Source: Candidatus Yonathbacteria bacterium RIFCSPHIGHO2_02_FULL_44_14 (GTDB taxonomy: Bacteria; Patescibacteriota; Minisyncoccia; Phycocordibacterales; UBA1550). Taken from it: DNA of 64,000 nucleotides. Under the pieces are notes generated by a model. That model ran no database searches. It was not told the origin of the DNA and saw only the letters and a program-made list of their open reading frames with translations. This document shows positions 12,396 to 62,556 of the stretch, one piece after another. Every line of letters starts with the position of its first letter. The stretch's first letter is position 1. The stretch lies in assembly GCA_001823535.1 (NCBI GenBank), contig MHUT01000006.1, forward strand, positions 27,631 to 91,630. The letters are read 5' to 3'. The translations under genes and the position numbers were made by a program.

Positions 12396-12416
12396 AAAAC
12401 GAGGTACAATTGCCAT

Positions 12417-13531: not shown

Positions 13532-13540
13532 CTAGATAAT

Positions 13541-13573
13541 TAAAATAAAAAGCAAGGGCGTTTTTGCCCTTGC
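13541..13573 (-). terminator. Rho-independent terminator after the DUF397-like gene
   Basis: gcaagggc-gttttt-gcccttgc hairpin followed on the minus strand by a T-run. Confidence 0.6.
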
Positions 13574-13590
13574 TTACCCGGCAAGTACGC

Positions 13591-13854
13591 TCAGAGTTCG
13601 TCAAAATTGAGTTCACCCTCCCGGATACCTTTTGTGAATGCATCCCACTCGTCCTTGTCAAAAGAAAGAGTTGTTTTGTTCGGGTCCCTCGTTGACCTTA
13701 CGAGGAGTCGGCCACCCTCTTTTTTAACGCTTACGCAAGAGAATGAGATCGGCTTCCTTTTTGTAAATGAAGTGGTTTTGAATCCTTCTTCGTCGACCTT
13801 TTGGCCCTGATTGTTGGTTGTAAATGCACAACCGTTTCCAAAAACATCTTTCAT
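13591..13854 (-). CDS. DUF397-like small protein. Start reassigned to ATG 13854; the track start is a GTG at 13866.
   Basis: C-terminal half SCVSVKKEGGRLLVRSTRDPNKTTLSFDKDEWDAFTKGIREGE aligns with the actinobacterial DUF397 consensus. A degenerate N-terminal copy (GNGCAF) precedes it. Own terminator. Confidence 0.55.
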   Translation of the reverse strand: MKDVFGNGCAFTTNNQGQKVDEEGFKTTSFTKRKPISFSCVSVKKEGGRLLVRSTRDPNKTTLSFDKDEWDAFTKGIREGELNFDEL

Positions 13855-13965
13855 AATATACCCCACTTTCTATCAAATGAATTAAGGAAAACTACCACCT
13901 GAAACCTAAAAGGCTTCAATGAAACAGTACCATATAATTAATTGCAAAGCAAGAGCAGAAAACAA

Positions 13966-14057
13966 GTTATCCACACCCTGTGGTTTGCGTAGCATTGCCC
14001 TAAAGCTTGATTGTGCGACGTGGGTATAATAGATTCCACCTAGCTCCCCTTTGCTTG
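13966..14057. repeat. Direct repeat copy 1 (~92 bp), left boundary of the three-gene cassette
   Basis: Near-identical to 16370-16470 apart from two small indels. Overlaps the last 5 codons (QAKGS) and stop of the ATP-grasp gene. Confidence 0.9.
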
Positions 14058-15098
14058 GCTCTGTTTCTTGATGTACGTGTCTACTGCATCGACAAAAATT
14101 CTCTCTGGATTAGGATGTTCACTAATTTTTTCCCAGCCAAGCGTTCCTTTGCGAAAGAAAAATGAAGAATGTTCTACTGCGTACTGCCCAAAACTTAAAA
14201 ATTGAAACTCAATAAGGAAATATTCGTTATCTCTGATTGCGACATCTATAGAAATAAACGGCACATTAAAAAATGTAAAAACCTTATCTGCAAAGTTTAA
14301 AAGATCGTCAGGTACTTCTTCTGGAAACGAGAGGATCCCGCTTCCACTTGCTCGGAAATCTCCCGGCCTGTTTCCCCTCCTGAGCACATAAAATCTATTA
14401 TCGTATATTAAAATTTTATAGTCGTGAGATAAGTCTGAAATAAAATTTTGAACTATAAATTTTCTGCGATAATTTGAGATTGATTTGAACCCTTTTCCAC
14501 TTAGGATGCCATTAAAGAATCTTTTTAAGTTTATAAATGAATAACTTCTTGCTATGTAGCGAGAGGCGTGCAAAGCTTCCTTTTTTGATCGCACAAGCCT
14601 CACTCCGCTACCCTTTGATCCAGATCCTGGCTTTATAACAATCGGAAGCCGGTTCCCGCTAAAAGATCCTTCGAATTCATCGAATGTTCCATATTTTTCT
14701 GAAATAATGTTTTGGATTAATGGGAATCTACTACTATCCCTTAAAATTTCCATGAACACTTTATTATGGTGAGCTCTGAACTTATAAAAATCTGGTATTA
14801 GGATAGCCTTGTTAATTTTAAGCCCTAATAAAATATCTTCAATATAATCCTTATAGCGAAGATCTGGGTCCTCTGCGGATTGATACAACACAAATGATCC
14901 TGCGTATTTATCTGAATGAAAATCAACATTTGAGAATCTCTCAATTTCAACACTGTATCCTCTGTTTTTAAATAAACGCTTCAATTCTGAGGTGTTCATA
15001 CTCCCAGCAACTTCCTTTGTTGATGAATAAAAAGTATTTCGATAATCGAGCAAAATAAAAAGTTTTTTAGTCATTTCTATCCTTAAAAATTTCTTCAA
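14040..15098 (-). CDS. ATP-grasp fold ligase; substrate unknown
   Basis: PIVIKPGSGSKGSGVRL glycine-rich loop. C-terminal ISIDVAIRDNEYFLIEFQF Mg/ATP-binding beta-strands. Its 3' end lies inside repeat copy 1. Confidence 0.7.
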   Translation of the reverse strand: MKKFLRIEMTKKLFILLDYRNTFYSSTKEVAGSMNTSELKRLFKNRGYSVEIERFSNVDFHSDKYAGSFVLYQSAEDPDLRYKDYIEDILLGLKINKAILIPDFYKFRAHHNKVFMEILRDSSRFPLIQNIISEKYGTFDEFEGSFSGNRLPIVIKPGSGSKGSGVRLVRSKKEALHASRYIARSYSFINLKRFFNGILSGKGFKSISNYRRKFIVQNFISDLSHDYKILIYDNRFYVLRRGNRPGDFRASGSGILSFPEEVPDDLLNFADKVFTFFNVPFISIDVAIRDNEYFLIEFQFLSFGQYAVEHSSFFFRKGTLGWEKISEHPNPERIFVDAVDTYIKKQSQAKGS

Positions 15099-15612
15099 AA
15101 AAGATTTGATCCCTCACAATATTGAACGCAGTATTATAGAATTTTATTTCCCCTTTTCTTACTTTATCTACCTGTTCTCTAAGAATTTTTCTTGCAGTTT
15201 CACCCTCAAGCCAAATAACTGAAAGATCGTTCTTTTTTTCGTCCTCGGTCCGCAGGTCCCCATAAGTTTCTTTTTTTGCCTCTACCAAAAAACAAATAGT
15301 TTCGTATTCTTTTGCATCTCTGTCGCGAAACTCATGAATCCGACCAACCTCACGCTCCACATCAACCTCATAACGTATCTCTTCGATACATTCTCTCTTG
15401 ATTTCTTGAATAATATCTGCGCTTTCAGCTCCTCCGCCTGCCAAAAGATAACATTTATGAATAGGGTTTGTAATAAAACCAAACTCCCCTCCCTCATTTT
15501 TCACAAGAGCCTTTACTGTCACCCTTTTTTCGTAATGATCAGGGGTAATGTGTGTCGGTTGAGGGAAAATGTCTTTATCGTGCAATGTAGCTAAATAATA
15601 CATATTACTCAT
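15067..15612 (-). CDS. Nudix-like hydrolase with divergent Nudix box. Start taken at the internal ATG 15612; the 5' ORF extension overlies a terminator hairpin.
   Basis: GGGAESADIIQEIKRECIEEIRY approximates the Nudix box GX5EX7REUXEEXGU with a one-residue shorter spacer. Overlaps the ATP-grasp start by 32 nt. Confidence 0.5.
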   Translation of the reverse strand: MSNMYYLATLHDKDIFPQPTHITPDHYEKRVTVKALVKNEGGEFGFITNPIHKCYLLAGGGAESADIIQEIKRECIEEIRYEVDVEREVGRIHEFRDRDAKEYETICFLVEAKKETYGDLRTEDEKKNDLSVIWLEGETARKILREQVDKVRKGEIKFYNTAFNIVRDQIFFEEIFKDRND

Positions 15613-15620
15613 TCTATCAT

Positions 15621-15656
15621 AAAAATTGGGCTTTCCGGCGGGTGGACGGAAAGCCC
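15621..15656 (-). terminator. Terminator-like hairpin immediately after the histidine phosphatase stop
   Basis: gggctttcc-...-ggaaagccc 9-bp stem, followed on the minus strand by aattttta. Confidence 0.5.
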
Positions 15657-15662
15657 AAAAAA

Positions 15663-16310
15663 TCAAACATTAAAATCAATTTTCGGAAGCGGCTTCTCGA
15701 GGATGAATTGACCGCATCCTGTATTGAAGAGAGCAGCGACGTAGCAATTGGGCGGATTTGCAAAAAAACAAAATTCATCATCAGTGATTGCCAGAAAAGC
15801 TTTCACAATGACTCTTAGGGCAAATCCATGTGTAAAAATTACTACACACTCAGGATGGTCATTGGATGCGCCGTCACTTTTTAATTCCTCTATAAATTGC
15901 TCAATGTCATGCACAAAGTCAGGGGTGTAATCTCCCTGAGGGAATTGGAAGTGTAGTACCCCGATACGATATCTCTCTTTCTCGACCTCCTTAATGGTTT
16001 TTTCGTCTACGTTGCCCCAGTTCAAGTTTCTAATACGTGGTTCAACGGTGACATCAAAATTGACCAAAGGAAAACTCGAACAGAATAATGACATTGTTTG
16101 GTCCGCGCGGTTTGAAGGCGAAGTAATTACCTTTACTCTTTGGTACAAATTTATCTCTTGAGATAAATTCCCTACTATTTCCAAAGCCTGCTTCTTTCCG
16201 GTTGTCGTAATTGAAATTCTACGATCTGGAACAACGCTATGCAAACAAGGGTCAATATCTTCTTCTGATTGCGCGTGCCGAACAAGAAATATACGTTTCA
16301 ACATTCCCAA
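15663..16310 (-). CDS. Histidine phosphatase superfamily protein (phosphoglycerate-mutase-like, branch 1)
   Basis: N-terminal LVRHAQSE (RHG motif) and a later THG motif (IFTHGF). Confidence 0.75.
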   Translation of the reverse strand: MGMLKRIFLVRHAQSEEDIDPCLHSVVPDRRISITTTGKKQALEIVGNLSQEINLYQRVKVITSPSNRADQTMSLFCSSFPLVNFDVTVEPRIRNLNWGNVDEKTIKEVEKERYRIGVLHFQFPQGDYTPDFVHDIEQFIEELKSDGASNDHPECVVIFTHGFALRVIVKAFLAITDDEFCFFANPPNCYVAALFNTGCGQFILEKPLPKIDFNV

Positions 16311-16369
16311 CTCCTTTTTAAAAAGAACTCAGTATATGTTGCGCTACAAATACAAATTTGTCAATAGCC

Positions 16370-16470
16370 GTTATTCACACCCTATGGCTTGCGTAGCATT
16401 GCCCTAACGCCTAAAGCTTAATTGTGCGACGTGGGTGTATAATAGATTCCACCTAGCTCCCCTTTGCTTG
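16370..16470. repeat. Direct repeat copy 2 (~101 bp), right boundary of the cassette
   Basis: Same sequence as 13966-14057 with acgcc and tg insertions. Supplies QAKGS-stop to the 81-aa ORF ending at 16453. Confidence 0.9.
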
Positions 16471-16698
16471 ATTTAAAAACTGTGCACCAAACGCCACCAG
16501 GAAAAGATACACAAATGCTCCCGCAGCGTAATACGCCATCACGAGTGAAACATTCCTATCAAAAATATTGTAAAGAAAAATAGGAAGAAAGACACCAAGG
16601 AGTCCGCTCGATATCGCCATCACCATGCGTCCAAAATAGAGCCCAAAGAACCCTCTCCTTCGTTCTTTGTTAGTTAGTAAGTAGTCCAGGTTTTCCAT
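16453..16698 (-). pseudogene. N-terminal fragment of a polytopic membrane (transporter-like) protein, fused to the repeat-encoded tail
   Basis: 81 aa with two TM helices, ending in the repeat-derived QAKGS-stop. Too short for a transporter, so likely truncated by the recombination that created the repeat. Confidence 0.4.
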
Positions 16699-16707
16699 TA
16701 TATATAT

Positions 16708-17166
16708 TTAATTGCGATCGTAGCGCCCAATGAGCGTCACCTTTTCGATTACATGAGGAGCGAGCGTCTGCAGCAGTTGCTCTTTGCTTGAACCTTTGGG
16801 TAATGAGAGAACAGCACTGAGCGTGTAGAGTGTAAAGATATATCGATGTTCTCGGTCAGGCGGACATGGACCTTCGTATGCTGATTCCCCGCTGGTGTTT
16901 GTCCCGATGACACCAGGAGGAGTCTCCCCTTCTGCAATCTGTGTTGTCGTGGGTGGTAGATTCCAAATTACCCAATGATTCCACATTCCATCGACGCGAA
17001 TATTTTTAGGAACGTCAGGATCTTCTAGTGTGAGGGCAAAACTCTTTGTCCCTATAGGTGCACCATCAATAATTAACTCTGGTGAAATGTTTTCACCGTC
17101 GCAGGTAAAACGAACTGGAATTTCCCCATTCATTTTGAAAGCGGTGCTCGTTAGGGTGAGTGACAT
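16708..17166 (-). CDS. YbhB/YbcL family Raf-kinase-inhibitor-like (PEBP) protein
   Basis: HRYIFTLYTL and DPDVP PEBP signatures. Confidence 0.8.
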   Translation of the reverse strand: MSLTLTSTAFKMNGEIPVRFTCDGENISPELIIDGAPIGTKSFALTLEDPDVPKNIRVDGMWNHWVIWNLPPTTTQIAEGETPPGVIGTNTSGESAYEGPCPPDREHRYIFTLYTLSAVLSLPKGSSKEQLLQTLAPHVIEKVTLIGRYDRN

Positions 17167-24159: not shown

Positions 24160-25107
24160 TTGAATATTGAAATGCTACACTATCCATATATGATTTCTCG
24201 ATATACCTACAAGGACATTGTTTGGGTCGATGTGCAGTCACCAACGCAAGATGAAGTTCGCGGACTCATGGACGAGTTCGGTATCCACCCTCTCGTTGCT
24301 CAGGAGCTTTTAGGGCCAACGCTTCGCCCCAAAGTGGATCTTTATCACGATTTTATTTACCTTATACTCCATTTTCCAACCATTACCCACAAGCATGATG
24401 GTGGAGAGGACCAAGAAATCGATTTTATTATTGGAAAGAAGTTTATCATTACGGCACATTACGATCACATTGATCAATTGCACGAATTTTCTAAAGTATT
24501 TGAAGTGAGCTCAATCCTCGATAAATCAAATATGGGTGACCATGCGGGATTCATCCTTTTCTATATCTTGAAAGATCTGTACAAAATGCTTGACGGCGAG
24601 CTTGAGCATATCAATCACGACTTCAACGAGATCCAGTCAAATATTTTTAACGGTAAGGAGCGCGACATGGTGAATTCCATTTCGCATATTAATCGTGACC
24701 TTTTGAATTTTAAACAAATATTGCGTCCCCACAAGGAAGTCCTTGAGTCATTCGAGATTGCGGGCACCAAATTCTTTGGCGAGGAATTTTCATACTACTT
24801 GCGAACTATTGTTGGAGAGTTCTACAAGATCTCCTCGATTCTCGACGGGCACCGCGAGACGGTGCTTGACCTTCGTGATACAAATGATTCTCTGCTAACG
24901 ACAAAAACAAACGATATCATGAAAACGCTCACCATCACCGCGTTTATTCTCCTTCCCCTCACCTTTATTGGCCAACTCTTTGGTATGAGTGTTGCGCACA
25001 TACCATTTGCAAGTAATCCCAATGCGTTTTGGATCATTTTGGTTACCATGGTCGTCGTGGGTTTCTGTCTCTTTGGTTACTTCAAGTTTTTCAAGAAATG
25101 GATGTAA
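24160..25107 (+). CDS. corA: CorA-family divalent cation transporter (GMS variant of the GMN motif)
   Basis: Cytoplasmic N-domain plus two C-terminal TM helices with FGMSVAHIPF. Confidence 0.75.
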   Translation: MNIEMLHYPYMISRYTYKDIVWVDVQSPTQDEVRGLMDEFGIHPLVAQELLGPTLRPKVDLYHDFIYLILHFPTITHKHDGGEDQEIDFIIGKKFIITAHYDHIDQLHEFSKVFEVSSILDKSNMGDHAGFILFYILKDLYKMLDGELEHINHDFNEIQSNIFNGKERDMVNSISHINRDLLNFKQILRPHKEVLESFEIAGTKFFGEEFSYYLRTIVGEFYKISSILDGHRETVLDLRDTNDSLLTTKTNDIMKTLTITAFILLPLTFIGQLFGMSVAHIPFASNPNAFWIILVTMVVVGFCLFGYFKFFKKWM

Positions 25108-26468
25108 CCCTCTTCAATACCCTGACGCGCTCGCTCGAGAAATTTGTGCCACTTCATGAACGCGAAGTGCGAATGTATCACTGCGGGCCCACTGTATACG
25201 ATTTTGCGCATATTGGAAACCTCCGCACTTTTATTGTGAACGATATTTTGCGGCGTACGCTTGAGTATGCTGGCTATGAAGTAAATCAGGTGATGAACAT
25301 CACTGATGTCGACGATAAAATGATTGCCCGCGCAAGGGAGGAAGGCGTGTCGATTCAGACACTTGCACGCGAGTACACCAATTTTTTACTTGCGGACTTT
25401 AAGGCGCTAAATATTATTACTCCACACCATCTACCGCGAGCGACGGAGCATGTTGGCGGTATGACAGTAATGATTGAAAAACTATTGCGTGATGGGTTCG
25501 CGTATGTTGCTTCTGACGGTGTATATTTTGAAGTCGCTAAAGCAAAAAATTACGAAACGCTTGCTCATCTTAATCTTGATGCCGAGACCGAGGCACGCGT
25601 AGAGAGCGCGCGCGACAAAAAATCACCGCGCGATTTCGCGCTTTGGAAATTTGAAACGTCTGATGATCATAACACTGCATATGACGCATCGTTTGGGCGC
25701 GGTCGCCCTGGCTGGCATATTGAATGTTCCGAAATGGCACGCGATGCACTTGGAGAAACAATAGATATTCACACGGGCGGCGTGGATCTTATTTTTCCAC
25801 ACCATACAAACGAGATTGCACAGTCGGAAGCTGCAAACGGGAAACCGTTCGTTAAGGTATGGGTTCATACGGAGTTTGTGATGATTGACGGGCAGAAAAT
25901 GTCAAAGTCGCTCGGGAACCACACAACTTTAAAAACTGTAGTAGAGAAAGGGTTTTCTCCGTTCGCCTTCCGATATTTTGTTCTCGGCGCAAACTATCGC
26001 TCTAAGCTTAATTTCACATGGGAAGGGGTCGAAGGTGCACAAACAGCACTTACTCGACTTGAGAGTCATATCGGAGCCGATGTGGGTACTATTAACGCAG
26101 ACTACCAAAAGCGTTTTATGGAAACAATCACCGCAGACCTCGACACCCCTCGCGCTCTTGCGCTTGCATGGGAAGTTGCAAAAGACAATTCCCTCTCTAT
26201 TGCCGACAAAACCGCAACACTTCTCGACTTTGACCGCGTGTTTGGGCTAGGACTCGCATCCGAATCAGCAGATTCGCGTCTTGGACGGAGAATAAAAAGC
26301 GTCATCCCGGCAAATATTGAGGCGCTCGCCCGCATGCGAGAGGCTGTACGTCTCGCCAAAAATTGGGCAGAGTCCGATAAAATCCGCGTCGAAATCAATT
26401 CTCTCGGTTGGAACATCGAGGACACCGATAAAGGCCCTAAAATCTCAAAATTAGACCGCAAGCAATAG
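25098..26468 (+). CDS. cysS: Cysteine--tRNA ligase. Start reassigned to ATG 25098; the track start is a TTG inside corA.
   Basis: HCGPTVYDFAHIGNLRTF (HIGH) and KMSKSLGN. Confidence 0.9.
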   Translation: MDVTLFNTLTRSLEKFVPLHEREVRMYHCGPTVYDFAHIGNLRTFIVNDILRRTLEYAGYEVNQVMNITDVDDKMIARAREEGVSIQTLAREYTNFLLADFKALNIITPHHLPRATEHVGGMTVMIEKLLRDGFAYVASDGVYFEVAKAKNYETLAHLNLDAETEARVESARDKKSPRDFALWKFETSDDHNTAYDASFGRGRPGWHIECSEMARDALGETIDIHTGGVDLIFPHHTNEIAQSEAANGKPFVKVWVHTEFVMIDGQKMSKSLGNHTTLKTVVEKGFSPFAFRYFVLGANYRSKLNFTWEGVEGAQTALTRLESHIGADVGTINADYQKRFMETITADLDTPRALALAWEVAKDNSLSIADKTATLLDFDRVFGLGLASESADSRLGRRIKSVIPANIEALARMREAVRLAKNWAESDKIRVEINSLGWNIEDTDKGPKISKLDRKQ

Positions 26469-26552
26469 CTTTTGTGTCATAATTTTCTATCCACCGCTTA
26501 TCCCCGTCCTTTTCCACCGCTTTATTTTTTGGGATGATGAACCTGTGCTAGA

Positions 26553-27974
26553 ATGACCCGTATGACAAGCAAACAGCAGACACCTGACCGACAATTTAAA
26601 TCGCGCGAGCTTCGCATCCCTCCCCAGAATATTGAAACCGAAAAGGCTCTTTTGGGTGCGCTGATGCTTCGCCCTGAGGGTATGTACGACGTGGGCGATA
26701 TGCTGACTCGCGATTCCTTCTATGTAGACAAGCACCGCATGCTTTTTGATGCGATGATCGAGCTCCACACGCGCCATGAGCCTATCGACCTCCTCTCTGT
26801 GTCCACGCGCCTCAAGGAGCGAGGCAAGTTTGACAGCATTGGCGGTGGCAGTTATTTGGCAGAGCTTGTCGACGCTGTCCCGTCTTCTACAAATGCAAAG
26901 CACTATGCTGAAATAATACAGCGAAAATATATTTTGCGTGCGCTCATAGAAGCCGCGGCTCACATCTCGGAGCTTGGCTACAACGAAGCCGAGGCAATAG
27001 AGAGTGTGCTCGACGAAGCAGAAAAGAAAATATATTCGATTACAAACTCAAGTGTCACCAAAAAGTTTGTCAGCCTAAAAGACACTCTTGACGAGGCATG
27101 GGAGCGCCTCGACAAAATGCACAAAGATGGCGGTGAGCTCCGCGGTGTTCCATCTGGTTTCCCCGCGCTCGACACACTCCTTTCTGGTTTTCAAAAATCC
27201 GACCTCATTATTCTCGCGGCACGTCCTTCGATGGGTAAGACGACGCTCGCACTCGACATCGCACGCCAAGCTGCAATTCACCACAATGTACCCGTAGGTA
27301 TCTTCTCCCTCGAAATGAACACGCAACAGCTTGTAGACCGTATGCTTTCCGCAGAGGCGCGTGTGAACGCATGGAAGCTCCGCACAGGGAAGCTCTCACT
27401 TGATGAAGACTTCGATAAGCTTCGCGGTTCGCTTGAAAAACTCTCCAAAGCACCAATCTTTATCGACGACCAGTCGGGCAATACTATTATGAAAATGCGT
27501 TCTGCTGCGCGAAAGCTCAAAAGCGAGCACGGACTCGGACTCATTATCGTTGACTATCTTCAACTCATGAACACATCGAAGCACTACGATTCTATGGTAA
27601 ACCAGGTGACCGAAATTTCACACTCACTCAAGGCTCTCGCAAAGGATCTTGACGTGCCAGTCATCGCCCTATCACAGCTTTCTCGTGCTCTAGAGTCTCG
27701 CGGTGGCAAACCAAAGCTCTCCGACCTCCGTGACTCGGGTTCCATCGAGCAAGACGCTGATATCGTTATGTTTATTCACAGAGAAGACAAGATGGACAAA
27801 AACGCAGAGAAGACAAACATTGCAGAAATCATTGTCGAGAAGCACCGAAACGGTCCTGTTGGCTCCATTCAGCTTTACTTTGATGAGGAGAAGTCCACGT
27901 TTATGTCAATCGACAAACAGCATGATTATGGAGCTAGTTCGCGCAACGCTGGAGGAAACTTTGAGGATTTTTAA
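26553..27974 (+). CDS. dnaB: Replicative DNA helicase, no intein
   Basis: GFPALDTLLSGFQKSDLIILAARPSMGKTTLAL Walker A; RecA-fold motifs H2-H4. 473 aa. Confidence 0.9.
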   Translation: MTRMTSKQQTPDRQFKSRELRIPPQNIETEKALLGALMLRPEGMYDVGDMLTRDSFYVDKHRMLFDAMIELHTRHEPIDLLSVSTRLKERGKFDSIGGGSYLAELVDAVPSSTNAKHYAEIIQRKYILRALIEAAAHISELGYNEAEAIESVLDEAEKKIYSITNSSVTKKFVSLKDTLDEAWERLDKMHKDGGELRGVPSGFPALDTLLSGFQKSDLIILAARPSMGKTTLALDIARQAAIHHNVPVGIFSLEMNTQQLVDRMLSAEARVNAWKLRTGKLSLDEDFDKLRGSLEKLSKAPIFIDDQSGNTIMKMRSAARKLKSEHGLGLIIVDYLQLMNTSKHYDSMVNQVTEISHSLKALAKDLDVPVIALSQLSRALESRGGKPKLSDLRDSGSIEQDADIVMFIHREDKMDKNAEKTNIAEIIVEKHRNGPVGSIQLYFDEEKSTFMSIDKQHDYGASSRNAGGNFEDF

Positions 27975-27987
27975 TTAAAGAAAGGAC

Positions 27988-28599
27988 ATGAGCAATATTG
28001 ATTCACTCGCGCAAGCATTTATGAAGTTCCCCGGCATTGGAACGCGCCAAGCAAAGCGTTTTGTGTATTTTTTGCTTGCTCAGGATCCACATTACGTAGA
28101 AACACTTGCGCGTGAAATTTCTGCGCTGAAAACAACAATCACTCAATGTGCTAGCTGTTTCCGTTTTTACCCGCGTATGGGTACAGGTACGATTTGTAAC
28201 GTGTGCATCGACGATGCAGACAGCAGCACGCTTATGGTAGTGGAAAAGGATACCGACTTTGAAAGCGTGCGTCGTAGCGGAAGCTATGCGGGGAGGTACT
28301 TTATTCTCGGTGGCACTATCCCCGTCCTCGAAAAAGACCCTGCGTCAAAAATTCGCACCCGAGAGCTCCTTGAGCGTATTGAGGGAGCCTCTGCAGACGG
28401 TCTTACGGAAATAATCCTCGCGCTTTCTGCAAACCCCGAGGGAGACTTCACCCGCGACTATGTACTCAAGGTGCTCTCCCCACTTACCTCTCAACTTGGC
28501 GTCAATATCACCACTCTTGGTCGCGGTCTCTCCACCGGCACTGAGCTTGAATACTCCGACGGCGATACCCTGCGCCACGCACTTAAGAATCGAGGTTGA
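27988..28599 (+). CDS. recR: Recombination protein RecR
   Basis: HhH N-terminus, C4 zinc finger CASC...CNVC, Toprim domain. Confidence 0.9.
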   Translation: MSNIDSLAQAFMKFPGIGTRQAKRFVYFLLAQDPHYVETLAREISALKTTITQCASCFRFYPRMGTGTICNVCIDDADSSTLMVVEKDTDFESVRRSGSYAGRYFILGGTIPVLEKDPASKIRTRELLERIEGASADGLTEIILALSANPEGDFTRDYVLKVLSPLTSQLGVNITTLGRGLSTGTELEYSDGDTLRHALKNRG

Positions 28600-28666
28600 T
28601 TTCCTCTCCCGTTATGATAGTCTGTCTATAGAAAGTTTTTGTATTTAAACTAAAGAAAAGGAGACA

Positions 28667-28924
28667 GTGATGGCACAAACATTAGCTGAATACAGAGCAA
28701 ACCCACCCACTCACATTGTTGAACTTTGCGGATGCGGATGTGGAAAACCCCTGGAGAAAAATGATCCTGGTGGATATAGCTACATGGTTGTTGATAGCAA
28801 AAAAGTCCTCGTTAATAACGATTGCTATTGGGATTCATTTAGCGATGATTTCGATGAAGTATGTGGTGGTTGTGTTGGTGGACTCGGAATTCACGGCCCG
28901 AAAAATAAATGTCCGCTTGATTAA
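28667..28924 (+). CDS. Small cysteine-rich protein (85 aa, about 9 Cys including CGCGCG)
   Basis: Strong AAGGAGA RBS and its own terminator. No family recognised. Confidence 0.5.
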   Translation: MMAQTLAEYRANPPTHIVELCGCGCGKPLEKNDPGGYSYMVVDSKKVLVNNDCYWDSFSDDFDEVCGGCVGGLGIHGPKNKCPLD

Positions 28925-28940
28925 AAATCAAGCAATAAAA

Positions 28941-28970
28941 AAACCGGCATCACTGCCGGCTTTCTTTTGA
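28941..28970. terminator. Bidirectional intrinsic terminator between the Cys-rich ORF and rplU
   Basis: ccggca-tcac-tgccgg followed by ctttcttttg, with an A-run on the other side. Confidence 0.6.
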
Positions 28971-28979
28971 GCTTCTAAC

Positions 28980-29297
28980 TTATTTAATCGCGTCGATAGT
29001 TACTTTCATAAAAGGCTGGCGGTGGCCGTTCTTCTTGAAGTAGCGAGATTTGTTGCGGTAGCGAATAACGATAACCTTCTTCCCGCGACCTTCCTCTGCG
29101 AGTGTTGCATGAACTGATGCCCCTACAACTACTGGGGTCCCTACGAGGGTCTTTGAACCGTCGTTTACAAGGAGAACCTGATCAAAGACAATCTTGTCTC
29201 CAACCTTGGGCTCGCCGGGAAGCTTCTCAATAACGAGAGTTTCGCCGGGAGCGACCTTGTATTGCTTGCCACCTGTCTGTATTACTGCAAAATTCAT
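28980..29297 (-). CDS. rplU: 50S ribosomal protein L21
   Basis: MNFAVIQTGGKQYKV...GHRQPF; 105 aa. Confidence 0.9.
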   Translation of the reverse strand: MNFAVIQTGGKQYKVAPGETLVIEKLPGEPKVGDKIVFDQVLLVNDGSKTLVGTPVVVGASVHATLAEEGRGKKVIVIRYRNKSRYFKKNGHRQPFMKVTIDAIK

Positions 29298-29778
29298 AGT
29301 CTTCGTATTCTACACGAAATAAAAGAAAATGCAAGGGTATGCGTGTTTTTTCGTCGCTTGTATATGACCGCCCTATGCAAGCGCCGAACGCTTGACAAAA
29401 TCAGGGTTCCTTGTTACTTTTGATTTGGGGCTCTTTGCAACCTTCGTTTTGCCAGCAATTGGCAATTGGTCTACGGCCAAGCCGGCGAATCAGCTGATTC
29501 GCCTGTGGATGAAGGTACGCATGGAGGTCCTATCTCGTGACACCTCGTTTGCGAGGCACGGTGTATCCCCCCTCTTGCAACCGAGGGTGTTATGAGATGT
29601 TGTACCTTTGGTCCCACTTTTACCACTATAAAAGACATGACCGCCCCGGAGCGTTATTCCCCTTTCGCCCCGGGTTTTTTTATTAGCGACGTAGACGAAT
29701 CAGCAGATTCGCGTCTTGGACGAAGACTTTAATGAAAAGTACCCTTTTCATTTGTGAGCCGAAGAGTTAATACCGCTT

Positions 29779-30894
29779 TTATTCCTCAATCAAAGGTTTT
29801 TCGATAAGAAGCGGATCGATGCTTGCAGTTTCGCCAGTAATCTTCACCATATCCTTGTCTACTTTTTTGAGCTCTTTGTATGCGGTATTGTAGTGGTTCA
29901 CGGTGGTGCCGAGCGCATTACCGATTTTTTTCATATATTCCTCGTAGGCAACCAAATGCTTCCTGAGCTCCTCAACTCGTCCAATAATGAGCTGTGCAGA
30001 CTCCTCGATTTTGAATGCGCGGAAACCGTACAGTACTGACTGCAGATATGCCGCAAAGGTCGTTGGCGAGACGATGATTACCTTCTTTTCGTTTGTTGCA
30101 TAGTCAATAAGGCTTCGTGTGTTAACCTTGACTGAGCCAACTTCGTTGATAAGAAGGTCGTAATAAATCCCCTCGGCAGGAATGAACATGAACGCAAATG
30201 GGAGTGTTCCCTCTGCAGGGCGCACATATTTTGCTGTTTCGTCTATTCGTTTCTTGAGGTCATTGCGAAAATCTTTTTCAAGCTCCTCTTTTCGGGCAGG
30301 ATCTGCTTCATTTACCACACGATTATAGTTGTCGAGCGAAAATTTTGCGTCAACCGGAATCATGCCATCTTTGGTAATGATGACGGCATCAACCGTTTCT
30401 CCGCTTTTGAATTGATGCTGAAGTTTGTACGCCGTGGGTGGCAAAATATTTGAAAGAATGAGTTCGAGCGCTGCTTCTCCCAGGTTCCCTCTTTGTTTCT
30501 GATGAGTGAGAACTTTTTCAAGGTTTTTGAGCTGGTCTGTGATGCCGAGAACCTGCTTGCTTGTCTCGTTTGCAGAGGTCATTTCCCTTGCCACATTTGT
30601 GAGGTTTCTCGATACTTGTTCGTTGATTTCGCGAATGAGCTTCTGCGACTCATTAAACTGCATATGCACCGACTCCTGCATCTCTTTGTTTGATGAGCCA
30701 ACCTTGGCATCGACAGTTTTCATAAAATCACCGAGTTGAGCCTGAAAATTCCCCAACTGGTTTTGGATGAGGAGAAGTGCATCACCTTGAGGTTCAGATT
30801 GGGATCCCGCTTGTCTGCGCAAAAAAAACACGATTACCATTACGACAATTGCGCCGAGTACAAGACCAATGAGTATAAGTGCGAGTGATGACAT
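29779..30894 (-). CDS. rmuC: DNA recombination protein RmuC
   Basis: N-terminal TM, coiled coil, RGNLGEAALELIL, and the FAFMFIPAEGIYYDLL nuclease-like core. Confidence 0.85.
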   Translation of the reverse strand: MSSLALILIGLVLGAIVVMVIVFFLRRQAGSQSEPQGDALLLIQNQLGNFQAQLGDFMKTVDAKVGSSNKEMQESVHMQFNESQKLIREINEQVSRNLTNVAREMTSANETSKQVLGITDQLKNLEKVLTHQKQRGNLGEAALELILSNILPPTAYKLQHQFKSGETVDAVIITKDGMIPVDAKFSLDNYNRVVNEADPARKEELEKDFRNDLKKRIDETAKYVRPAEGTLPFAFMFIPAEGIYYDLLINEVGSVKVNTRSLIDYATNEKKVIIVSPTTFAAYLQSVLYGFRAFKIEESAQLIIGRVEELRKHLVAYEEYMKKIGNALGTTVNHYNTAYKELKKVDKDMVKITGETASIDPLLIEKPLIEE

Positions 30895-30895
30895 A

Positions 30896-31093
30896 TTAAA
30901 TTCCGTATGCGCTACCCAAAGTAGTCATCAGCGCGGGAATGGCAAACATTAGCCCAACGAGTGGAAGTACAAAAAGCGCAATGGTTGCATAAAAAGTCCA
31001 CAGAAAATATTTACGGGTTTTTTCTGATGAAATATACACTTTCTGCAAAAGCTCTTCCTGCACCTGAAGGCGGTTCAAAATTTCTTGTTCCAT
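30896..31093 (-). CDS. Hypothetical small membrane protein (65 aa)
   Basis: One TM helix; abuts rmuC. Confidence 0.35.
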   Translation of the reverse strand: MEQEILNRLQVQEELLQKVYISSEKTRKYFLWTFYATIALFVLPLVGLMFAIPALMTTLGSAYGI

Positions 31094-31154
31094 GCGGCAA
31101 GTATAACATAAAAAAACGGACTGCCAATTTCTGGCAGTCCGTGTTCAGGGCTTC

Positions 31155-31697
31155 TCAATCCTGTTTTTTCATTGCTTTTTTGTGGACATACATTGCTTTA
31201 TCAGCAGCAGCATACATCTGTTCAAAGCTTTGGTTCTCTTTTCCGAATGTTGCAACACCAATCGCGGCTCCCTTGAAAAAGGGTAGCAATGACTCCCCCT
31301 TTTTAAGTGTTTGAAGTAAGTGCTCCTTCACTGTGGTGGCACTTTTTTCATTTTGATCTGGAAGGAACACCATAAATTCATCACCCCCAGTTCGCGCAAG
31401 AATGTCGCAGTCTCGGAAAGTGCTTCTTAAAAACATAGCGAACGATCTAATCATTTGATCTCCAGCTTGATGACCATATGTGTCGTTGACTGTCTTCAGA
31501 TAGTTTAGGTCAATGATTAGGATTGAAAAAGGCCTCTTGGTACGTTTGGATCGAAGGATTTCTTCTTCGACCGCCACTTGAAAAACCTTTCTTCGTGGCA
31601 GGCCTGTTAGATCGTCCAAAGTGAGTTCTCTTAGTTCCTTTACCTCCCTTTTCAATACTTCAATTTCTTGCTCCGCTTCCTTCAAAGTGCGTGCCAT
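31155..31697 (-). CDS. GGDEF-domain diguanylate cyclase with short N-terminal coiled coil
   Basis: LTGLPRRKVF..., RTGGDEFMVFL (GGDEF) and the inhibitory-site-like RxxD region. Confidence 0.8.
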   Translation of the reverse strand: MARTLKEAEQEIEVLKREVKELRELTLDDLTGLPRRKVFQVAVEEEILRSKRTKRPFSILIIDLNYLKTVNDTYGHQAGDQMIRSFAMFLRSTFRDCDILARTGGDEFMVFLPDQNEKSATTVKEHLLQTLKKGESLLPFFKGAAIGVATFGKENQSFEQMYAAADKAMYVHKKAMKKQD

Positions 31698-31827
31698 TGT
31701 GGCCTCCTAGAATTGTTGTGATGTGCTGTTTATAACTCAATCAATTATAGCAAGTTTACATACAAATGTCAATAGTAGCATAGTGTGTAAAAAGCCGTAT
31801 ACTGTAAGGATTAATTGGTAATAATTT

Positions 31828-32289
31828 TTGACTATGTCCTTACACGAACAAATAAAAGCAGAGGTAAAACCCGCCATGATGGCAAAAGATGCGGTGCGCC
31901 TCTCGGTGGTGCGCAATATGATTTCGGCTTTTACGAATGAGCTTGTGGCAACAGGTAAAACTCCGCAGGACATGCTCGACGATGCAGGTGTCCTGAAGGT
32001 TATCAAACGCCTCTCTAATCAACGCAAAGACTCTATAGAACAGTTTATAAACGGCGGTCGCCCTGAGCTTGCAGAGAGCGAACAAGCAGAACTTGTTATC
32101 CTCGAAAAGTACCTCCCTACCCTTATGTCTCGTGAGGAAATAAAAAAAATTGCGCTCGCAAAAAAAGAAGCTCTTGGTGTGACAGATAAATCAAAAGCAG
32201 GACAGCTTACCGGGGCTATTATGAAAGAGCTCACAGGCAAAGCGGATGGTGGGGATGTGAAGGCAGTGGTGGATGAATTGTTTACCTAA
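31828..32289 (+). CDS. GatB/YqeY domain protein
   Basis: Full-length similarity to the YqeY family (153 aa). Confidence 0.75.
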   Translation: MTMSLHEQIKAEVKPAMMAKDAVRLSVVRNMISAFTNELVATGKTPQDMLDDAGVLKVIKRLSNQRKDSIEQFINGGRPELAESEQAELVILEKYLPTLMSREEIKKIALAKKEALGVTDKSKAGQLTGAIMKELTGKADGGDVKAVVDELFT

Positions 32290-33508
32290 TCTTTCCCCGA
32301 AGTTGTCTGTGGAAACCTATCGCAAAACGGTGGGCTTCGCTGTTGGCGAGGAGAATTGAGCGTTCATGTGATTGTGCAAGTATTTTGTCCCCGAGGATAC
32401 TTTTTGGTTTATGACGTTCGTCTTTTACGACACCAACAACGGGAATCGCGAGACCCCACTCCTTGAGCGCTTTTTTCGCAGTGTTTACCTGCGCAGTGCC
32501 TCCATCAACAACAATAAGTTTCGGCATCGGCCATTCAGCGTGATTAAACCGTCGTTCAAGTATTTCACGGAGCGATGCATTGTCATCGTTTGTGCTCGTT
32601 TTAATCTTAAATTTTCTGTAATCACTTTTTTTCGGCTCGCTGTCTTCAAGGACGGTCATCACGCCAACGGTGTTTGTGCCGGAAATATGTGCAACATCAT
32701 AGGCTTCAATTCGAAACCCTGCTTCCCCTAGGACCATCCTAGGGGAAGCTTTTAGGAGAGCGACGTCCTGGATATGATTGAGAGCAAAAATTGTCCGCTT
32801 TATTTGTCCTGCCTCTTCAAATTTAAGATTGTTTGCAGATACTTTCATTTCACGGAGAAGTCCGCTCACGAGAGTTTTCTTCTTTCCTTCAAAAAATAGC
32901 TTAGTACGACGAATTGTTTTTGCATACTCTGTTTTTGATACTAATCCCGCGCACACCCCTGGGCAGAGACCAATCTGCGCATTGAAACAAGGTTTGCCTT
33001 GACCAACCTTACACTTGTCTCTAAATGGAAAAATCTTGCGGACAATATTGAGCGCCTCGCGCAAAACACCACCTTGAGGAAAAGGTCCAAACAAATATTT
33101 AACTTCGCTTTTTAGTCCAAGTCCAAGACGAGAATTTGCTAATTCATCCATTTCGCGCCCGCGCATTGTTGTCACTCTTGGAAAATCTTCTTTTGTTATA
33201 ACAACGTAGTTAAAACTTTTATTGTCTTTTTCTTTCGTATTGTAGGGCGGTTGGTGTTTCTTGATTAGTTGGGCTTCAAGAATGAGCGCCTCAAGAACAG
33301 AATCAGTTTCGATAAAGTCTACGTTCTTTGCCGCTTCAATCATTCCAGCAATAATAGGTCCGCGGGTAGAAATGAGGTCCCGGCGAAAATAGCTCGCTAC
33401 TCGTGTGTGGAGCGAAGTTGCCTTGCCGATGTACAATATCACGCGCTTTGGTCCACGAAATATATAGACGCCGGGGTTGTCTGGAAGTTTTGTTGTTAAT
33501 TTTTGCAT
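32282..33508 (-). CDS. uvrC: Excinuclease ABC subunit C, short form lacking the C-terminal (HhH)2 domain
   Basis: GIY-YIG (GVYIFRG...YIGKA), Cys motif KPCFNAQIGLCPGVCAG, UVR-like helix, RNase-H-like endonuclease IEAYDVAHISG. Only 408 aa. Confidence 0.8.
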   Translation of the reverse strand: MQKLTTKLPDNPGVYIFRGPKRVILYIGKATSLHTRVASYFRRDLISTRGPIIAGMIEAAKNVDFIETDSVLEALILEAQLIKKHQPPYNTKEKDNKSFNYVVITKEDFPRVTTMRGREMDELANSRLGLGLKSEVKYLFGPFPQGGVLREALNIVRKIFPFRDKCKVGQGKPCFNAQIGLCPGVCAGLVSKTEYAKTIRRTKLFFEGKKKTLVSGLLREMKVSANNLKFEEAGQIKRTIFALNHIQDVALLKASPRMVLGEAGFRIEAYDVAHISGTNTVGVMTVLEDSEPKKSDYRKFKIKTSTNDDNASLREILERRFNHAEWPMPKLIVVDGGTAQVNTAKKALKEWGLAIPVVGVVKDERHKPKSILGDKILAQSHERSILLANSEAHRFAIGFHRQLRGKIR

Positions 33509-33577
33509 ACTTTACATTATGTTTATTAAAGCGTAGCATAAATGGAGATTAACCGTTCCATGTACGAAGGAGTGATC

Positions 33578-33958
33578 ATGAAGAAAAAAAATCATGAAGT
33601 GCCAGTTCTAGCCAAAGTACTATTCCCCGAAACCTATGAAGATGCTGAGAATGCTTTGCTGAGATACATGCCATTCCTAAAAATGCCTGAAATGCGCCAT
33701 CTCCTTGCGATAAAAGCCTCGTTTCTTACAACGCTTGCCATTGGGATGTCAAATGAGCGTGATTGGGACCTAAAAGAAGAGCGCGGTGAAGACGTAAAAA
33801 TGTGCATTTTCCTGTCAAAAGAGACACTACCCGCATCTGAAATGGAAGCGGACGAAGAAGTGAGGAGATGCGCCAATTATGCTTATGTTTCAAAAATGGT
33901 CTCTGGTTATGTAAACGCATTTAGGCTACCTACAAAAAAACTTCCACACAATAAGTAA
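33578..33958 (+). CDS. Hypothetical protein. Start at ATG 33578, preceded by an AAGGAG RBS.
   Basis: Strong SD 7 nt upstream. No homology recognised. Confidence 0.45.
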   Translation: MKKKNHEVPVLAKVLFPETYEDAENALLRYMPFLKMPEMRHLLAIKASFLTTLAIGMSNERDWDLKEERGEDVKMCIFLSKETLPASEMEADEEVRRCANYAYVSKMVSGYVNAFRLPTKKLPHNK

Positions 33959-34000
33959 CAGTAAGTTAAATTAAATTGAATAGCTACGGGTTTCCCGCGG

Positions 34001-36598
34001 CTATTTTCTTTTAAGCACCTTTTTCAGGTACTTACCCGTGTGAGAAAGTGGGCTTGCGGCAATCTGCTCGGGAGTGCCTCGAGCGACGATTTGCCCTCCG
34101 CCCTCCCCCCCCTCGGGACCGATGTCTATAACATAATCCGCACTCTTGATAACATCCATGTTGTGCTCTATGAGAACCACGCTGTTTCCTTTGTCTACGA
34201 GTTTTTGCAAAATCTCGATAAGCTTGCGCACATCTTCGTAGTGAAGACCTACTGTCGGTTCATCAAGAAGATAGATTGTTTTTTCAGTATTTGGACGATA
34301 GAGTTCAGATGATATTTTGACACGCTGAGCCTCACCACCCGAGAGTGTTGTTGCTGATTGCCCGAGCTTCAAATATCCCAGCCCAACGTCATTCAATGTT
34401 TTTAATCGATCATAGATCGCAGGAATATCTACAAAAAAATCAATCGCCTCTTCCACTGTCATTTCAAGCACTTCATAGATATTTTTCTTTTTGTACCTTA
34501 CTTCAAGGGTATCCTTTTCAAAACGTTTACCGCGACATACATCGCAAGTAACGTACACTGTCGGCAGGAAATGCATCTCAACCGCGATAGTACCGTTGCC
34601 TTGGCAGGTTTCGCAACGGCCACCCTTTACATTAAATGAAAACCGCCCCGGGCCCCATCCGCGCAAACGCGCCTCAACTGTTTCGGAAAACAAGTCGCGT
34701 ATAAACGTGAACGAACCGGTGTATGTTGCAGGGTTTGAGCGTGGTGTGCGACCGATAGCAGACTGGTCGATGAGTACCGTGCGCGCAAGATATTCTGTAC
34801 CCGTAAAACTCTCACAATTAAAAATATCATTCGTGCGATATTTATATTCCAGGCGTGCTTGAAGATTTTTGTGAATAAGTTCGTACATGAATGTCGATTT
34901 TCCAGAGCCTGAGACTCCCGTAATCGCCACGAGCTTGCCGAGCGGAATATCAGCATTCAGTCGTTTGATGTTAAAAATTGTGCCTTCGCGGATACGAAGA
35001 TGCCCTCTGTCGGTTTCGCGTCTTTTTGGAATAGGCACAGAAACATCGCCGCGCAAATAGTCGAGCGTGAGTGATTTATATTTTTTTGGATTGGTGATAA
35101 GTTCGTCGAGATCTCCGGAAACCACGATGTTCCCCCCATGAACACCTGCACCGGGACCTATGTCAACCATATAGTCTGCTGCAAAGATGGTGTCCTCGTC
35201 GTGTTCAACCACAATGATTGTATTCCCGATATCACGAAGCTCTTTTAATGTTTTAATGAGACGGTCGTTGTCCCTCTGGTGAAGACCAATAGTCGGCTCA
35301 TCGAGCACATAAAGGGCACCAACGAGACGCGAGCCAAGCTGAGATGCGAGCCGAATACGCTGGCCTTCTCCGCCAGAAAGTGTGCCCGCGCGACGGCTGA
35401 GAGTTAGGTAATTCAAACCCACTTCAAGCATAAAAGAAAGACGATTTTGGATCTCTTTTACAACGGGAACCGAGATATCTTTGTCACGAGGAGAAATTTT
35501 TAAGGTCGAAAAAAAGTCAGCTGCTTCTTGGATTGACATATTTACCAATTCAACAATGTTTTTTCCACTCACAAATACATTAAGAGCTTCTTTCCGAAGG
35601 CGCGCGCCATTACAGTCGGGACAATTTTCTTTACCAAAAAAATGCTTTGTGCCAAGTCCGTTACAAAGTTCGCATGCACCATATGGTGAATTGAAAGAAA
35701 ATAATCGCGGCTCGATTTCAGGATATGAAAAGCCATCGTTTGGGCAGGCGAAACGATTGGACATTATAAAATCCTTACCGTCATTTTTTGAATCAGCTGA
35801 TTCGGGGCTTGGTCCGGAACTTTTTTTAGTGAATACGATACGAACAAGACTCTGTGATTCGTCGAGCGCTTTTTCAACTGCTTCACCAAGGCGTTCTCGG
35901 CCCTTTTCTTTACCTTTGAAGTCAGAGAGCAGAATTTCGTCAACAAGTACATCAATTTCGTGTTTTTTTGTTTTTGAAAGCTCAATCTTCTCACGGAGAT
36001 TTTTTAGAGCACCATCAATCCGCACCATGAGGTATCCACGACCGAGGAGATCGTAGAGCAACTGGTAGTATTCGCCTTTGCGTCCTCGTACAAGCGGTGC
36101 AAAAATACGAATAGATGTTGCTTTTTTCCCTGCATCACCTTTTACTTCGTCCATGATGAAATTTAGTATTTCTTCATTACCGAGACGCTTGATTTCAGTA
36201 CCGCAAACGAGACAGTGTGGCTTACCGATGCGCGCATAGAGCACCCGCAAGTAGTCGTATACTTCAGTGATAGTAGCCACTGTCGAGCGAGGGTTTGACG
36301 AGTGTGATTTTTGATCAATGGAAATAGACGGGGAAAGACCAGTGATCTCATCAACGTCAGGCTTCTGCATTTGGTTCAAAAACTGTCGCGCATACGCCGA
36401 GAGTGATTCAACGTAGCGTCTTTGACCTTCTGCGAAGATAGTGTCAAAAGCAAGCGAGGACTTCCCAGACCCAGAGAGTCCGGTAAATACAATCATTTTA
36501 TCGCGGGGCATTTCTACGCTGATGTTTTTGAGATTGTGGGTACGTGCGCCGCGTACAGTGATTTTATCGAGATGTTTCTGTTTTTTAATTTCTGCCAT
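34001..36598 (-). CDS. uvrA: Excinuclease ABC subunit A. Start reassigned to the MAEIKK ATG at 36598.
   Basis: Two ABC cassettes ([24 protein letters not shown]), LSGGE signature twice, zinc-finger Cys pairs. Confidence 0.9.
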
Positions 36599-36654
36599 TG
36601 GATGCATAGAGTAACACACATTTACTCATTTGACCACCGCTGTTAGTTATAATT

Positions 36655-40059: not shown

Positions 40060-40605
40060 ATGCGGACATTCGAGATTATTGCAGCAGTAGCAAACGGAAA
40101 CGTGATTGGATATCAAGGGGAAATGCCATGGGGTCGTCTACCAAACGACCTCAAACATTTTGAGAGTCTCACCATGGGACATTCAGTCGTAATTGGTTTC
40201 AATACTTTGCTGGCCATTGGCAAAATGGCTAACCGCAGAACAAAATTGCTTCCAGGTCGTAAGATTTACGTTTTAACGCGTAATCCAAACAAATTAACTC
40301 AGTTTCCGGATTGCTTCTGGCTTCCAGGAGTTAGGGAGGCTTCGTTGATAAATGACAGGGGACGCGTTTTTGTTGCTGGCGGACAGGATATCTATCATCA
40401 ATTCATAGATCATCCGCAAACGCGGATCATCCACATAACGCGTATCTTTGCAAATTACCACGGCGATACTTTCTTCCCAATTTTGCAGAACGATGCGTGG
40501 CAAATAGAAAAGTATGATGTTTGCCGTGCGGATGACAGAAACAAGCATGAGATTGGGTTTATTACCAAGTCTCGAACGAGACCTCATCAATATGAAATGA
40601 CATAA
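40060..40605 (+). CDS. folA: Dihydrofolate reductase
   Basis: GYQGEMPWGRLPNDLKHF, VVIGFNT, LPGRKIYVLTR, VAGGQDIYHQF, GDTFFP follow the DHFR pattern. Confidence 0.75.
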   Translation: MRTFEIIAAVANGNVIGYQGEMPWGRLPNDLKHFESLTMGHSVVIGFNTLLAIGKMANRRTKLLPGRKIYVLTRNPNKLTQFPDCFWLPGVREASLINDRGRVFVAGGQDIYHQFIDHPQTRIIHITRIFANYHGDTFFPILQNDAWQIEKYDVCRADDRNKHEIGFITKSRTRPHQYEMT

Positions 40606-48404: not shown

Positions 48405-48758
48405 TTAAAAAAACAAGGCATGAACCACGAAGAACGCAGTCATCATAATCGCTGACAGTATACTTGACCATACTGCGATTAGTACTGCGCGTTCGAGCGA
48501 TTGAGTGCTTGCGGATGTCTTACGGCGAATAAGGAAGATAACCGTAAATAAAAAGATTGCAAGCGCACTTTTCCCAAGCCAATGATGCGCAAAAACAGTT
48601 TTCAGCGTATCCTTAAGTGGGCTCCACAATTCAGCGCCGATTGTGAGAATCGTAATTAGTACGGCAACCGCTGCAGTTCCTTCTGCTGCAGCACGCGCTC
48701 GAATTAGTAAATTGGTGTCTCGGACGTGAGTTGTCATCTTATGAGTAGATATTTTCAT
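48405..48758 (-). CDS. Hypothetical membrane protein (117 aa)
   Basis: Three TM helices. Confidence 0.4.
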   Translation of the reverse strand: MKISTHKMTTHVRDTNLLIRARAAAEGTAAVAVLITILTIGAELWSPLKDTLKTVFAHHWLGKSALAIFLFTVIFLIRRKTSASTQSLERAVLIAVWSSILSAIMMTAFFVVHALFF

Positions 48759-62501: not shown

Positions 62502-62556
62502 GATGTATTTATTTTTTACAATAATACTTGTGCACAATACACCAAAAAGCTCTCTT

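Follow-up and report, generated by a model that had tools for sequence, protein, structure and literature searches.

Rickettsia palindromic elements (RPEs), which are about 100–150 bp long and confined to Rickettsia, and PARCELs, which are about 100 nt or longer, recur inside individual surface proteins and code for amphipathic segments, are palindromic repeats found inside protein-coding genes. Repetitive extragenic palindromes (REPs) are essentially extragenic, carry a GTAG head, often stand as inverted doublets and reach hundreds of copies in a species-specific manner, and the uptake sequences of Neisseria (DUS) and Pasteurellaceae (USS) measure 9–12 nt, recur about once per kb and lack structural covariation. 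We describe here a repeat of about 33 nt in a 64,000-nt stretch of contig MHUT01000006.1 (hereafter the window) from Candidatus Yonathbacteria bacterium RIFCSPHIGHO2_02_FULL_44_14, a member of the Patescibacteria, with copies in cysS, uvrC, uvrA and the rplU–rmuC spacer. This unit works like RPEs and partly like REPs, and is probably a non-autonomous, selfish, hairpin-dependent mini-element that is copied in trans to new sites.

A first-pass annotation of this DNA had reported four dispersed copies of a palindrome, together with an exact 27-nt repeat that it considered too long to be a chance match, and in-frame translation of the copies in cysS and uvrA. We located the 14-nt palindrome GAATCAGCWGATTC at positions 26262, 29487, 29697 and 35790, in agreement with that report to within 2–3 nt, and found no match to it in 100 dinucleotide-preserving shuffles. 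The 27-mer CGAATCAGCAGATTCGCGTCTTGGACG, over which copies 1 and 3 are identical (27/27 nt), occurred at 26261–26287 and 29696–29722 and likewise never in shuffles. Translation reproduced SESADSRLG(RR) in cysS (context GLASESADSRLGRRIK) and PESADS in uvrA. All four reported copies were thus confirmed, but the total is five (Table 1): a covariance model trained on 73 related copies, which scored the four intact window copies at 44–54 bits, detected an additional, decayed copy in uvrC (copy 4), whose translation is DELANSRLGLGL. The palindrome itself proved to be only hairpin 1 of a longer unit (27–33 nt), as a repeat finder and manual comparison showed NNNC-TTG-GNNN and then a TARAC-like tail 3' of the palindrome in 4/4 intact window copies. 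The consensus, (K)(K)C-GAATC-AGCW-GATTC-G, then YGKC-TTG-GMCR, then TARAC, describes two adjacent hairpins and a short tail, and position counts over 115 instances placed the conserved information between about −3 and +31 of the unit, with K-K-C at −3 to −1, a purine at −6 and no GTAG. The five copies all lie inside 9.6 kb, three of them genic and two in the spacer.

Copy 1 was predicted to fold into two hairpins (−7.4 kcal/mol, z = −2.7), and the intact window copies, taken as single-strand DNA, all formed two adjacent hairpins with z of about −3; copy 2 has one extra base between them. The stem of hairpin 2 varied widely among copies (TGT/ACA, CGT/ACG, TGG/CCA, CGG/CCG, GTT/AAC, GAT/ATC, TGA/TCA, CTT/AAG and others), with both sides changed in 3/4 pairs and a covariation score that 0/500 shuffles reached. 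Related loci totalling 690 kb, several of them syntenic with the window (designated by L numbers), yielded about 30 further, more diverged copies by the covariance model, in which helix 1 also covaried: both sides had changed in 5/6 pairs, 98% of cells were paired, and 0/500 shuffles did as well. Hairpin 1 covariants in these diverged copies included GAATT..AAATC, CAAATC..GATTTG, GAGTC..GACTC and GAACC..GGTTC, and in the decayed copy 4 (GAATT-AGCA-AATTC) a C:G pair has become T:A through changes on both sides. Compensatory changes maintain both stems, so recognition or maintenance acts on the folded single strand, be it DNA or RNA.

Comparison of orthologous sites showed that the repeat is a discrete unit, either present or absent. 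In an alignment of 60 cysteinyl-tRNA synthetases (CysRS), only the window protein and one other sequence (P0016), which has a decayed insert at the same place, carried the insert; nearly all others are 440–447 aa long, versus 456 aa in the window, where 9 extra residues lie in a linker. At the nucleotide level, the window cysS has 27 nt more than its syntenic counterparts L114 and L059, and relative to syntenic L104 the window uvrA has 33 nt more, with the gap falling exactly at copy 5, and the window uvrC 27 nt more. Solved UvrA structures likewise show a 14-residue gap at the uvrA insert site. The first-pass suggestion that the ESADS segments are lineage-specific insertions was therefore upheld by the two inserts in 60 CysRS and by the empty cysS and uvrA alleles. 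Insertions were also seen in the opposite direction, namely 24 nt at the uvrC N-terminus of L104, 21 nt in the recR zinc-finger loop of L059, and a tgt copy in L011 and L080 that is absent from the window. The syntenic cysS-dnaB-recR-...-uvrCAB-tgt block has thus been hit recurrently and independently, in the window, L059, L104 and L011/L080. Decay was evident in the window uvrC copy, in P0016 CysRS and in the uvrC of L104, where a remnant lies near a fresh N-terminal copy. In the spacer, copy 2 is an insertion into a non-coding unit, as syntenic L059 lacks that stretch and the window has about 75 nt extra there; copy 3 is also absent from L059. Because copy 1 is identical to copy 3 over the 27-mer and a CysRS 86% identical to that of the window has no insert, the cysS copy looks from these sequences like a recent daughter of spacer copy 3, 3.4 kb away.

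We scanned one genome per prokaryotic species for the pattern GAATCAGCWGATTCG-N3-4-CTTGG and obtained at least 114 loci; among the matches listed, about 108 were from Patescibacteria and about 6 from other phyla. As a naive estimate puts the chance matches in the whole collection at about 17, the enrichment for which the first-pass annotation proposed a genome-wide count is borne out in Patescibacteria, and the non-Patescibacteria matches listed are within the chance range. The Patescibacteria matches came from at least 54 assemblies, mostly Paceibacteria, deposited as Yonath-, Nomura-, Kaiser-, Taylor- and Azambacteria, Paceibacterota and Minisyncoccia, with some Saccharibacteria, Gracilibacteria and Shapirobacteria. 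The repeat is therefore native to Patescibacteria, mainly the class Paceibacteria, and its density, judged from the copies in the related loci, is about tens per Mb. A phage origin was rejected, as 2.9 million viral contigs gave a single match. Literature searches by exact sequence and by keyword found no published description of the repeat. That the copies are nothing special, reflecting coincidence, convergence on low-complexity ESADS coding, or an artefact of assembly or adaptors, is hardly credible: the encoded peptides are indeed hydrophilic and of low complexity, which is all that speaks for it, but shuffles gave no matches, identical nucleotides recur at synonymous positions and in non-coding DNA, orthologous empty sites exist, and the metagenome-assembled genomes stem from dozens of independent studies and assemblers.

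Coding DNA was poor in copies: only 40% of them lay in stop-free open reading frames (ORFs) of at least 150 aa, versus 75% of random positions, and a crude gene call assigned 71 copies to intergenic DNA and 45 to genes (45/116 in called ORFs). About 20 copies were in Pfam-confirmed genes, which outside the window included dnaE, recJ, rnhA, two rluA-type genes, trmD, mnmA, miaA, def, ileS, rpsA, rpoD and two solute-binding proteins; among about 25 host genes, 8 serve genome maintenance (dnaE, recR, recJ, rnhA, uvrA and uvrC three times). Two frames are used in genes, encoding ESADS or NQ(L/Q)IR, and the third contains stop codons. Housekeeping genes keep only stop-free, in-frame copies, encoding short hydrophilic loops, and the sole out-of-frame copy interrupts a DDE transposase gene; in that locus (L024, about 2300–3000) the rve-like transposase ORF is split and frameshifted by the repeat, and its N-terminal part has no Pfam match. 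Removal of the repeat in the manner of an intron was rejected. When 21–45 nt were deleted at each copy, long ORFs became fused at only 7, and the three fusions inspected by translation comprised two pairs of neighbouring unrelated genes (mreB/holB-like, and cysteine desulfurase-like/Fe-Mn superoxide dismutase-like) and the frameshifted DDE transposase.

Copies showed no orientation preference, with 29 genic copies antisense and 16 sense to the host and balanced orientation classes between genes. This bears on whether the repeat is an RNA motif that acts in transcripts, as a leader, processing site or protein-binding hairpin pair, which we regard as quite improbable. Two adjacent covarying hairpins with conserved loops are what such a motif would look like, copy 2, some 170 nt upstream of rplU, is in the same orientation as that gene, and one subfamily stands in a fixed arrangement (hairpin, ATGC, repeat, AAATCAC, ATG) immediately before the start codons of fusA, pyrG, frr, maf and other genes. 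However, copies come and go at orthologous sites, and a search of the window and 22 loci against Rfam 15, at gathering and permissive thresholds (E up to 10), found no relevant family, only tRNA, a 23S fragment and chance-level matches. A general RNA role is unlikely because the orientation is random.

Set against the described systems, the repeat resembles RPEs in being a palindromic hairpin repeat found between genes and in frame within housekeeping genes, without a transposase of its own, restricted to some lineages when orthologues are compared, and adding a surface segment to the encoded protein. The likeness to RPEs proposed in the first-pass annotation therefore holds for the in-frame, palindromic mode of insertion but not for membership of the family, from which a unit of 27–33 nt with two short separate hairpins in Patescibacteria is set apart by length and host. 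With the REP/REPIN-RAYT system it shares the form of a non-autonomous, imperfect palindrome of 20–40 nt whose stem is kept by compensatory change, and REPs owe their spread to an unlinked enzyme recognising the folded single strand. Unlike REPs, it has a quarter to a third of its copies in genes (the crude gene call above gives 45/116), lacks the GTAG/CTAC head, and occurs mostly as single copies, tens per genome, with the same sequence across a class; no RAYT was seen among the ORFs near copies or the 20 window ORFs. It is like PARCELs in yielding an acceptable peptide in either orientation inside protein-coding genes, but has only 33 nt, is single-copy at each site and is mostly intergenic. 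Palindrome-associated transposable elements (PATEs) derived from IS200/IS605 and IS91-type HUH elements offer a further parallel in hairpin recognition, the lack of a fixed target duplication and the existence of short non-autonomous derivatives, and the hairpin 2 loop CTTG and the GAAC-like tail recall the IS91 target tetranucleotides. Yet known PATEs are several times as long as our unit, which has neither a replication-strand bias nor a conserved 4-nt target, and the same ORFs contained no HUH gene. Finally, it lacks the fixed-length target-site duplication flanking terminal inverted repeats that marks a DDE-derived miniature inverted-repeat element. The repeat thus departs from every known family testable here in defining features, namely RPE length and host, REP location, GTAG head and copy number, the high density and unstructured nature of uptake sequences, MITE duplication and IS200/IS605 strand bias.

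If the repeat is a selfish mini-element, as we favour, its spread would depend on a conserved, unlinked enzyme recognising the invariant hairpin 1; candidates would be an HUH-type nuclease or transposase specific for single-strand structures, or a reverse transcriptase that uses a small RNA copy as template. Integration may occur where the DNA is nicked or gapped, with no set stagger, and this would account for junctions that vary (gains of 21–33 nt net in genes and occasional flanking duplications of 11–13 nt). Selection would then filter the insertions, leaving only in-frame, stop-free copies in essential genes. The junctions themselves were heterogeneous. In-gene copies had no duplication and net gains of 21–33 nt, with an apparent target loss of 0–12 nt. 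Flanking direct repeats were enriched overall (6.81 versus 6.34 +/- 0.08 in permuted controls), with varying length and offset, and one empty allele already had the repeated 8-mers, which belong to GTCARTTG arrays upstream of -10-like boxes. A few copies, at L059, L075, L009 and L096, have perfect flanking repeats of 11–13 nt.

Several observations weigh against this interpretation. Neither the filled and empty pairs nor the flanking-repeat test revealed a fixed target-site duplication, and there is no clear target consensus beyond K-K-C at −3 to −1. A mobilising enzyme was not identified among the ORFs within 1.5 kb of copies or the 20 window ORFs: 904 ORFs lying no further than 1.5 kb from 121 copies, clustered all against all, formed no family present in more than 5 loci, and the 20 window ORFs included no transposase and no reverse transcriptase. 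Orientation was not biased with respect to local GC skew, used as a proxy for replication (48 versus 50 copies; 22 versus 29 where |skew| was at least 0.05), and this absence does not fit the lagging-strand bias of IS200/IS605-type HUH elements. Copy number is modest, at tens per genome. Hairpin 1 keeps the same sequence in genomes whose CysRS share only 55–75% identity; selfish repeats rarely behave so, and a binding site under selection would account for it. Some copies occupy conserved positions in several species, although sequence conservation at such orthologous sites says little, as the search pattern itself fixes 21/33 positions; moreover, the copies used for covariation were picked by pattern or by model, which favours structure.

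The main alternative is that a conserved Patescibacteria protein binds the repeat as a functional site, in DNA generally or in single-strand DNA, and that the site has multiplied because it is useful, with the in-gene copies as tolerated by-products; it might signal DNA uptake or processing during natural transformation, direct recombination or replication, or be a palindrome of the operator type. We consider such a site unlikely, though not negligibly so. At least 54 species-level genomes share an invariant hairpin 1, the two orientations are equally frequent, as in DNA uptake sequences, and the maintenance genes among the hosts, together with the independent insertions in the repair-gene block, recall the preference for genome-maintenance genes that has been reported for uptake sequences in Neisseria and Haemophilus. 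The CGAA...TTCG half-sites also recall Gram-positive LexA boxes. Like DUS and USS, the repeat is a short sequence conserved across a clade that occurs in both orientations, whether or not within genes, and apparently favours maintenance genes. It is, however, 20–100 times rarer (5 copies in 64 kb, and tens per Mb rather than about 1 per kb), and the covariation of both helices points to a folded strand and not to double-strand read-out. In addition, in-gene copies decay, the maintenance-gene count is inflated by synteny, and copies lie hundreds of codons inside genes, where an operator would be useless. In the GC-skew profile nothing pointed to an origin near the cluster; the skew changes sign at about 12 kb, away from it, and a parS-like or origin-proximal site was rejected. 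The protein-binding or uptake site that the first-pass annotation offered as an equal alternative thus retains the invariance of hairpin 1 and the recurrence in the repair block, and loses ground on stem covariation and low copy density. A more speculative proposal, to which we give still less weight, is that the 33-nt unit is the cis substrate of an unrecognised class-wide insertion system, in which a structure-specific enzyme encoded elsewhere would read the 6-bp/AGCW hairpin and the free-sequence hairpin and insert the unit into essential genes with no fixed target duplication, or else is a functional single-strand signal for DNA uptake or repair in obligate epibionts. Were such an insertion system real, the unit would be the smallest known mobile unit that is autonomous in form, with a mechanism unlike the DDE, Y1-REP and RPE models.

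Table 1. Repeat copies and other features of the window (positions are those of the 64,000-nt stretch).
Feature	Positions	Strand	Context	Score
Copy 1	26258..26295	+	in cysS (~25098-26468, +), sense; core 27-mer at 26261-26287	53.9 bits
Copy 2	29466..29504	-	480-nt rplU-rmuC spacer, inside conserved non-coding unit	43.8 bits
Copy 3	29693..29730	+	rplU-rmuC spacer, nested in ~85-nt dispersed module	54.1 bits
Copy 4	33112..33149	-	decayed, in uvrC (32282-33508, -), sense	24.3 bits, E = 4.7e-7
Copy 5	35786..35823	+	in uvrA (34001-36619, -), antisense to gene	44.3 bits
Spacer unit	29390-29685	+ (by eye)	non-coding unit of rplU-rmuC spacer	
TTGACA-like box	~29395		in spacer unit	
GC-rich stem + T-run	~29640-29683		in spacer unit	
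~85-nt module	29678-29772		hosts copy 3	
Low-GC region	12000-17000		at GC-skew sign change	
~90-nt repeats	13966-14057; 16370-16470		near-identical, in low-GC region	
tRNA-Gln	62257-62330			
29-nt duplicate	62481-62509		of part of tRNA-Gln	
Palindrome, 26-nt arms	62557-62608		near-perfect, near tRNA-Gln	

The gene order at the cluster is corA-cysS-dnaB-recR-rplU-rmuC-GGDEF-uvrC-uvrA-uvrB-tgt, with names mostly from Pfam, uvrA from its match to solved structures, and uvrB inferred from position and size only. Two further candidate copies in the window were rejected: 48700–48730 (68% match) had no support from the covariance model, and 40554–40581 on the minus strand had only a weak match to hairpin 2 (E = 0.019).

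Some copies stand within larger arrangements. Composite forms of the type hairpin1-[hairpin1-hairpin2-tail]-CTTGGNNN-tail were found, with a 3+3 form in L100, and look like self-nesting or sub-repeat amplification. The dispersed module that hosts copy 3 matches no Rfam family and consists of TTTTATTAGCGACGTAGAGCGAG, a covarying hairpin with the loop AGTAAT, and CGAGCCGAGGAGYTAATATAG, with ends that can pair (TATTAGC/GCTAATA). It occurs without the repeat in L060 (7–75), L034 (about 1780–1863, minus strand) and L030 (about 240–321, minus strand), and with the repeat at the same position and in unrelated flanks in L041 and L025, the filled form being 24 nt longer. The non-coding unit of the rplU–rmuC spacer, partly conserved in syntenic L059, had no Rfam match, and a simple promoter and terminator scan called neither its TTGACA-like box nor its stem and T-run.

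A conserved leader of about 90 nt, comprising a GGCCGCG...CGCGGC hairpin, ATGC, a repeat variant (AAAC-TTG-GTAAT), TTCGCAAAATCAC and ATG, was seen in nine loci from Kaiserbacteria and Paceibacterota (L002, L019, L033, L040, L058, L065, L069, L088 and L092). It has no visible Shine-Dalgarno sequence, and the genes directly 3' of it, unrelated to one another, were recognised by eye in translation as EF-G, CTP synthase, ribosome recycling factor, Maf and malic enzyme. Many intergenic copies of the repeat lie within arrays of GTCA(A/G)TTG or TGACTTT, which stand just upstream of -10-like boxes and start codons at many intergenic loci (for example L016, L050, L062, L075, L080 at 1780–1990, and L101). 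At two loci (L009, 130–290, and L107, 3820–3975), a 19-nt copy of the 5' end of tRNA-Leu(tag) directly precedes an intact tRNA-Leu, with the repeat in the would-be D-loop of that copy; this looks like a partial duplication with the repeat at its junction. Syntenic L026 has a repeat copy about 100 nt from its tRNA-Gln, and the window has a duplicate of part of its own tRNA-Gln and a long palindrome nearby (Table 1).

Other features of the window and its relatives were noted in passing. The low-GC region (0.37–0.39 versus about 0.44) contains three ORFs without a Pfam match and two near-identical repeats, and syntenic L076 is about 2.5 kb shorter there. The window UvrA lacks about 115 residues between the two halves of solved UvrA, its residues 319–321 corresponding to chain positions 304–421. 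In L008 (1–2784), DnaE carries a LAGLIDADG intein as well as the 33-nt repeat, the latter in its HhH region.

Patescibacteria genomes are among the smallest and most streamlined of bacteria, and they nevertheless carry tens of these 33-nt repeats, some within essential translation, replication and repair genes. The repeat explains odd lineage-specific loops in the CysRS, UvrA, UvrC, RecR, DnaE, RpoD and S1 proteins of these candidate phyla radiation (CPR) bacteria, and may serve as a clade marker and, through its presence or absence at given sites, as a character for strain tracking. If it is selfish, very small genomes still support a mobile element of extreme economy, and the repeat would be a handle for finding its enzyme. 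If it is functional, its class-wide invariance would point to a conserved nucleic-acid-binding activity in organisms in which DNA uptake and repair are central to lifestyle and poorly understood.

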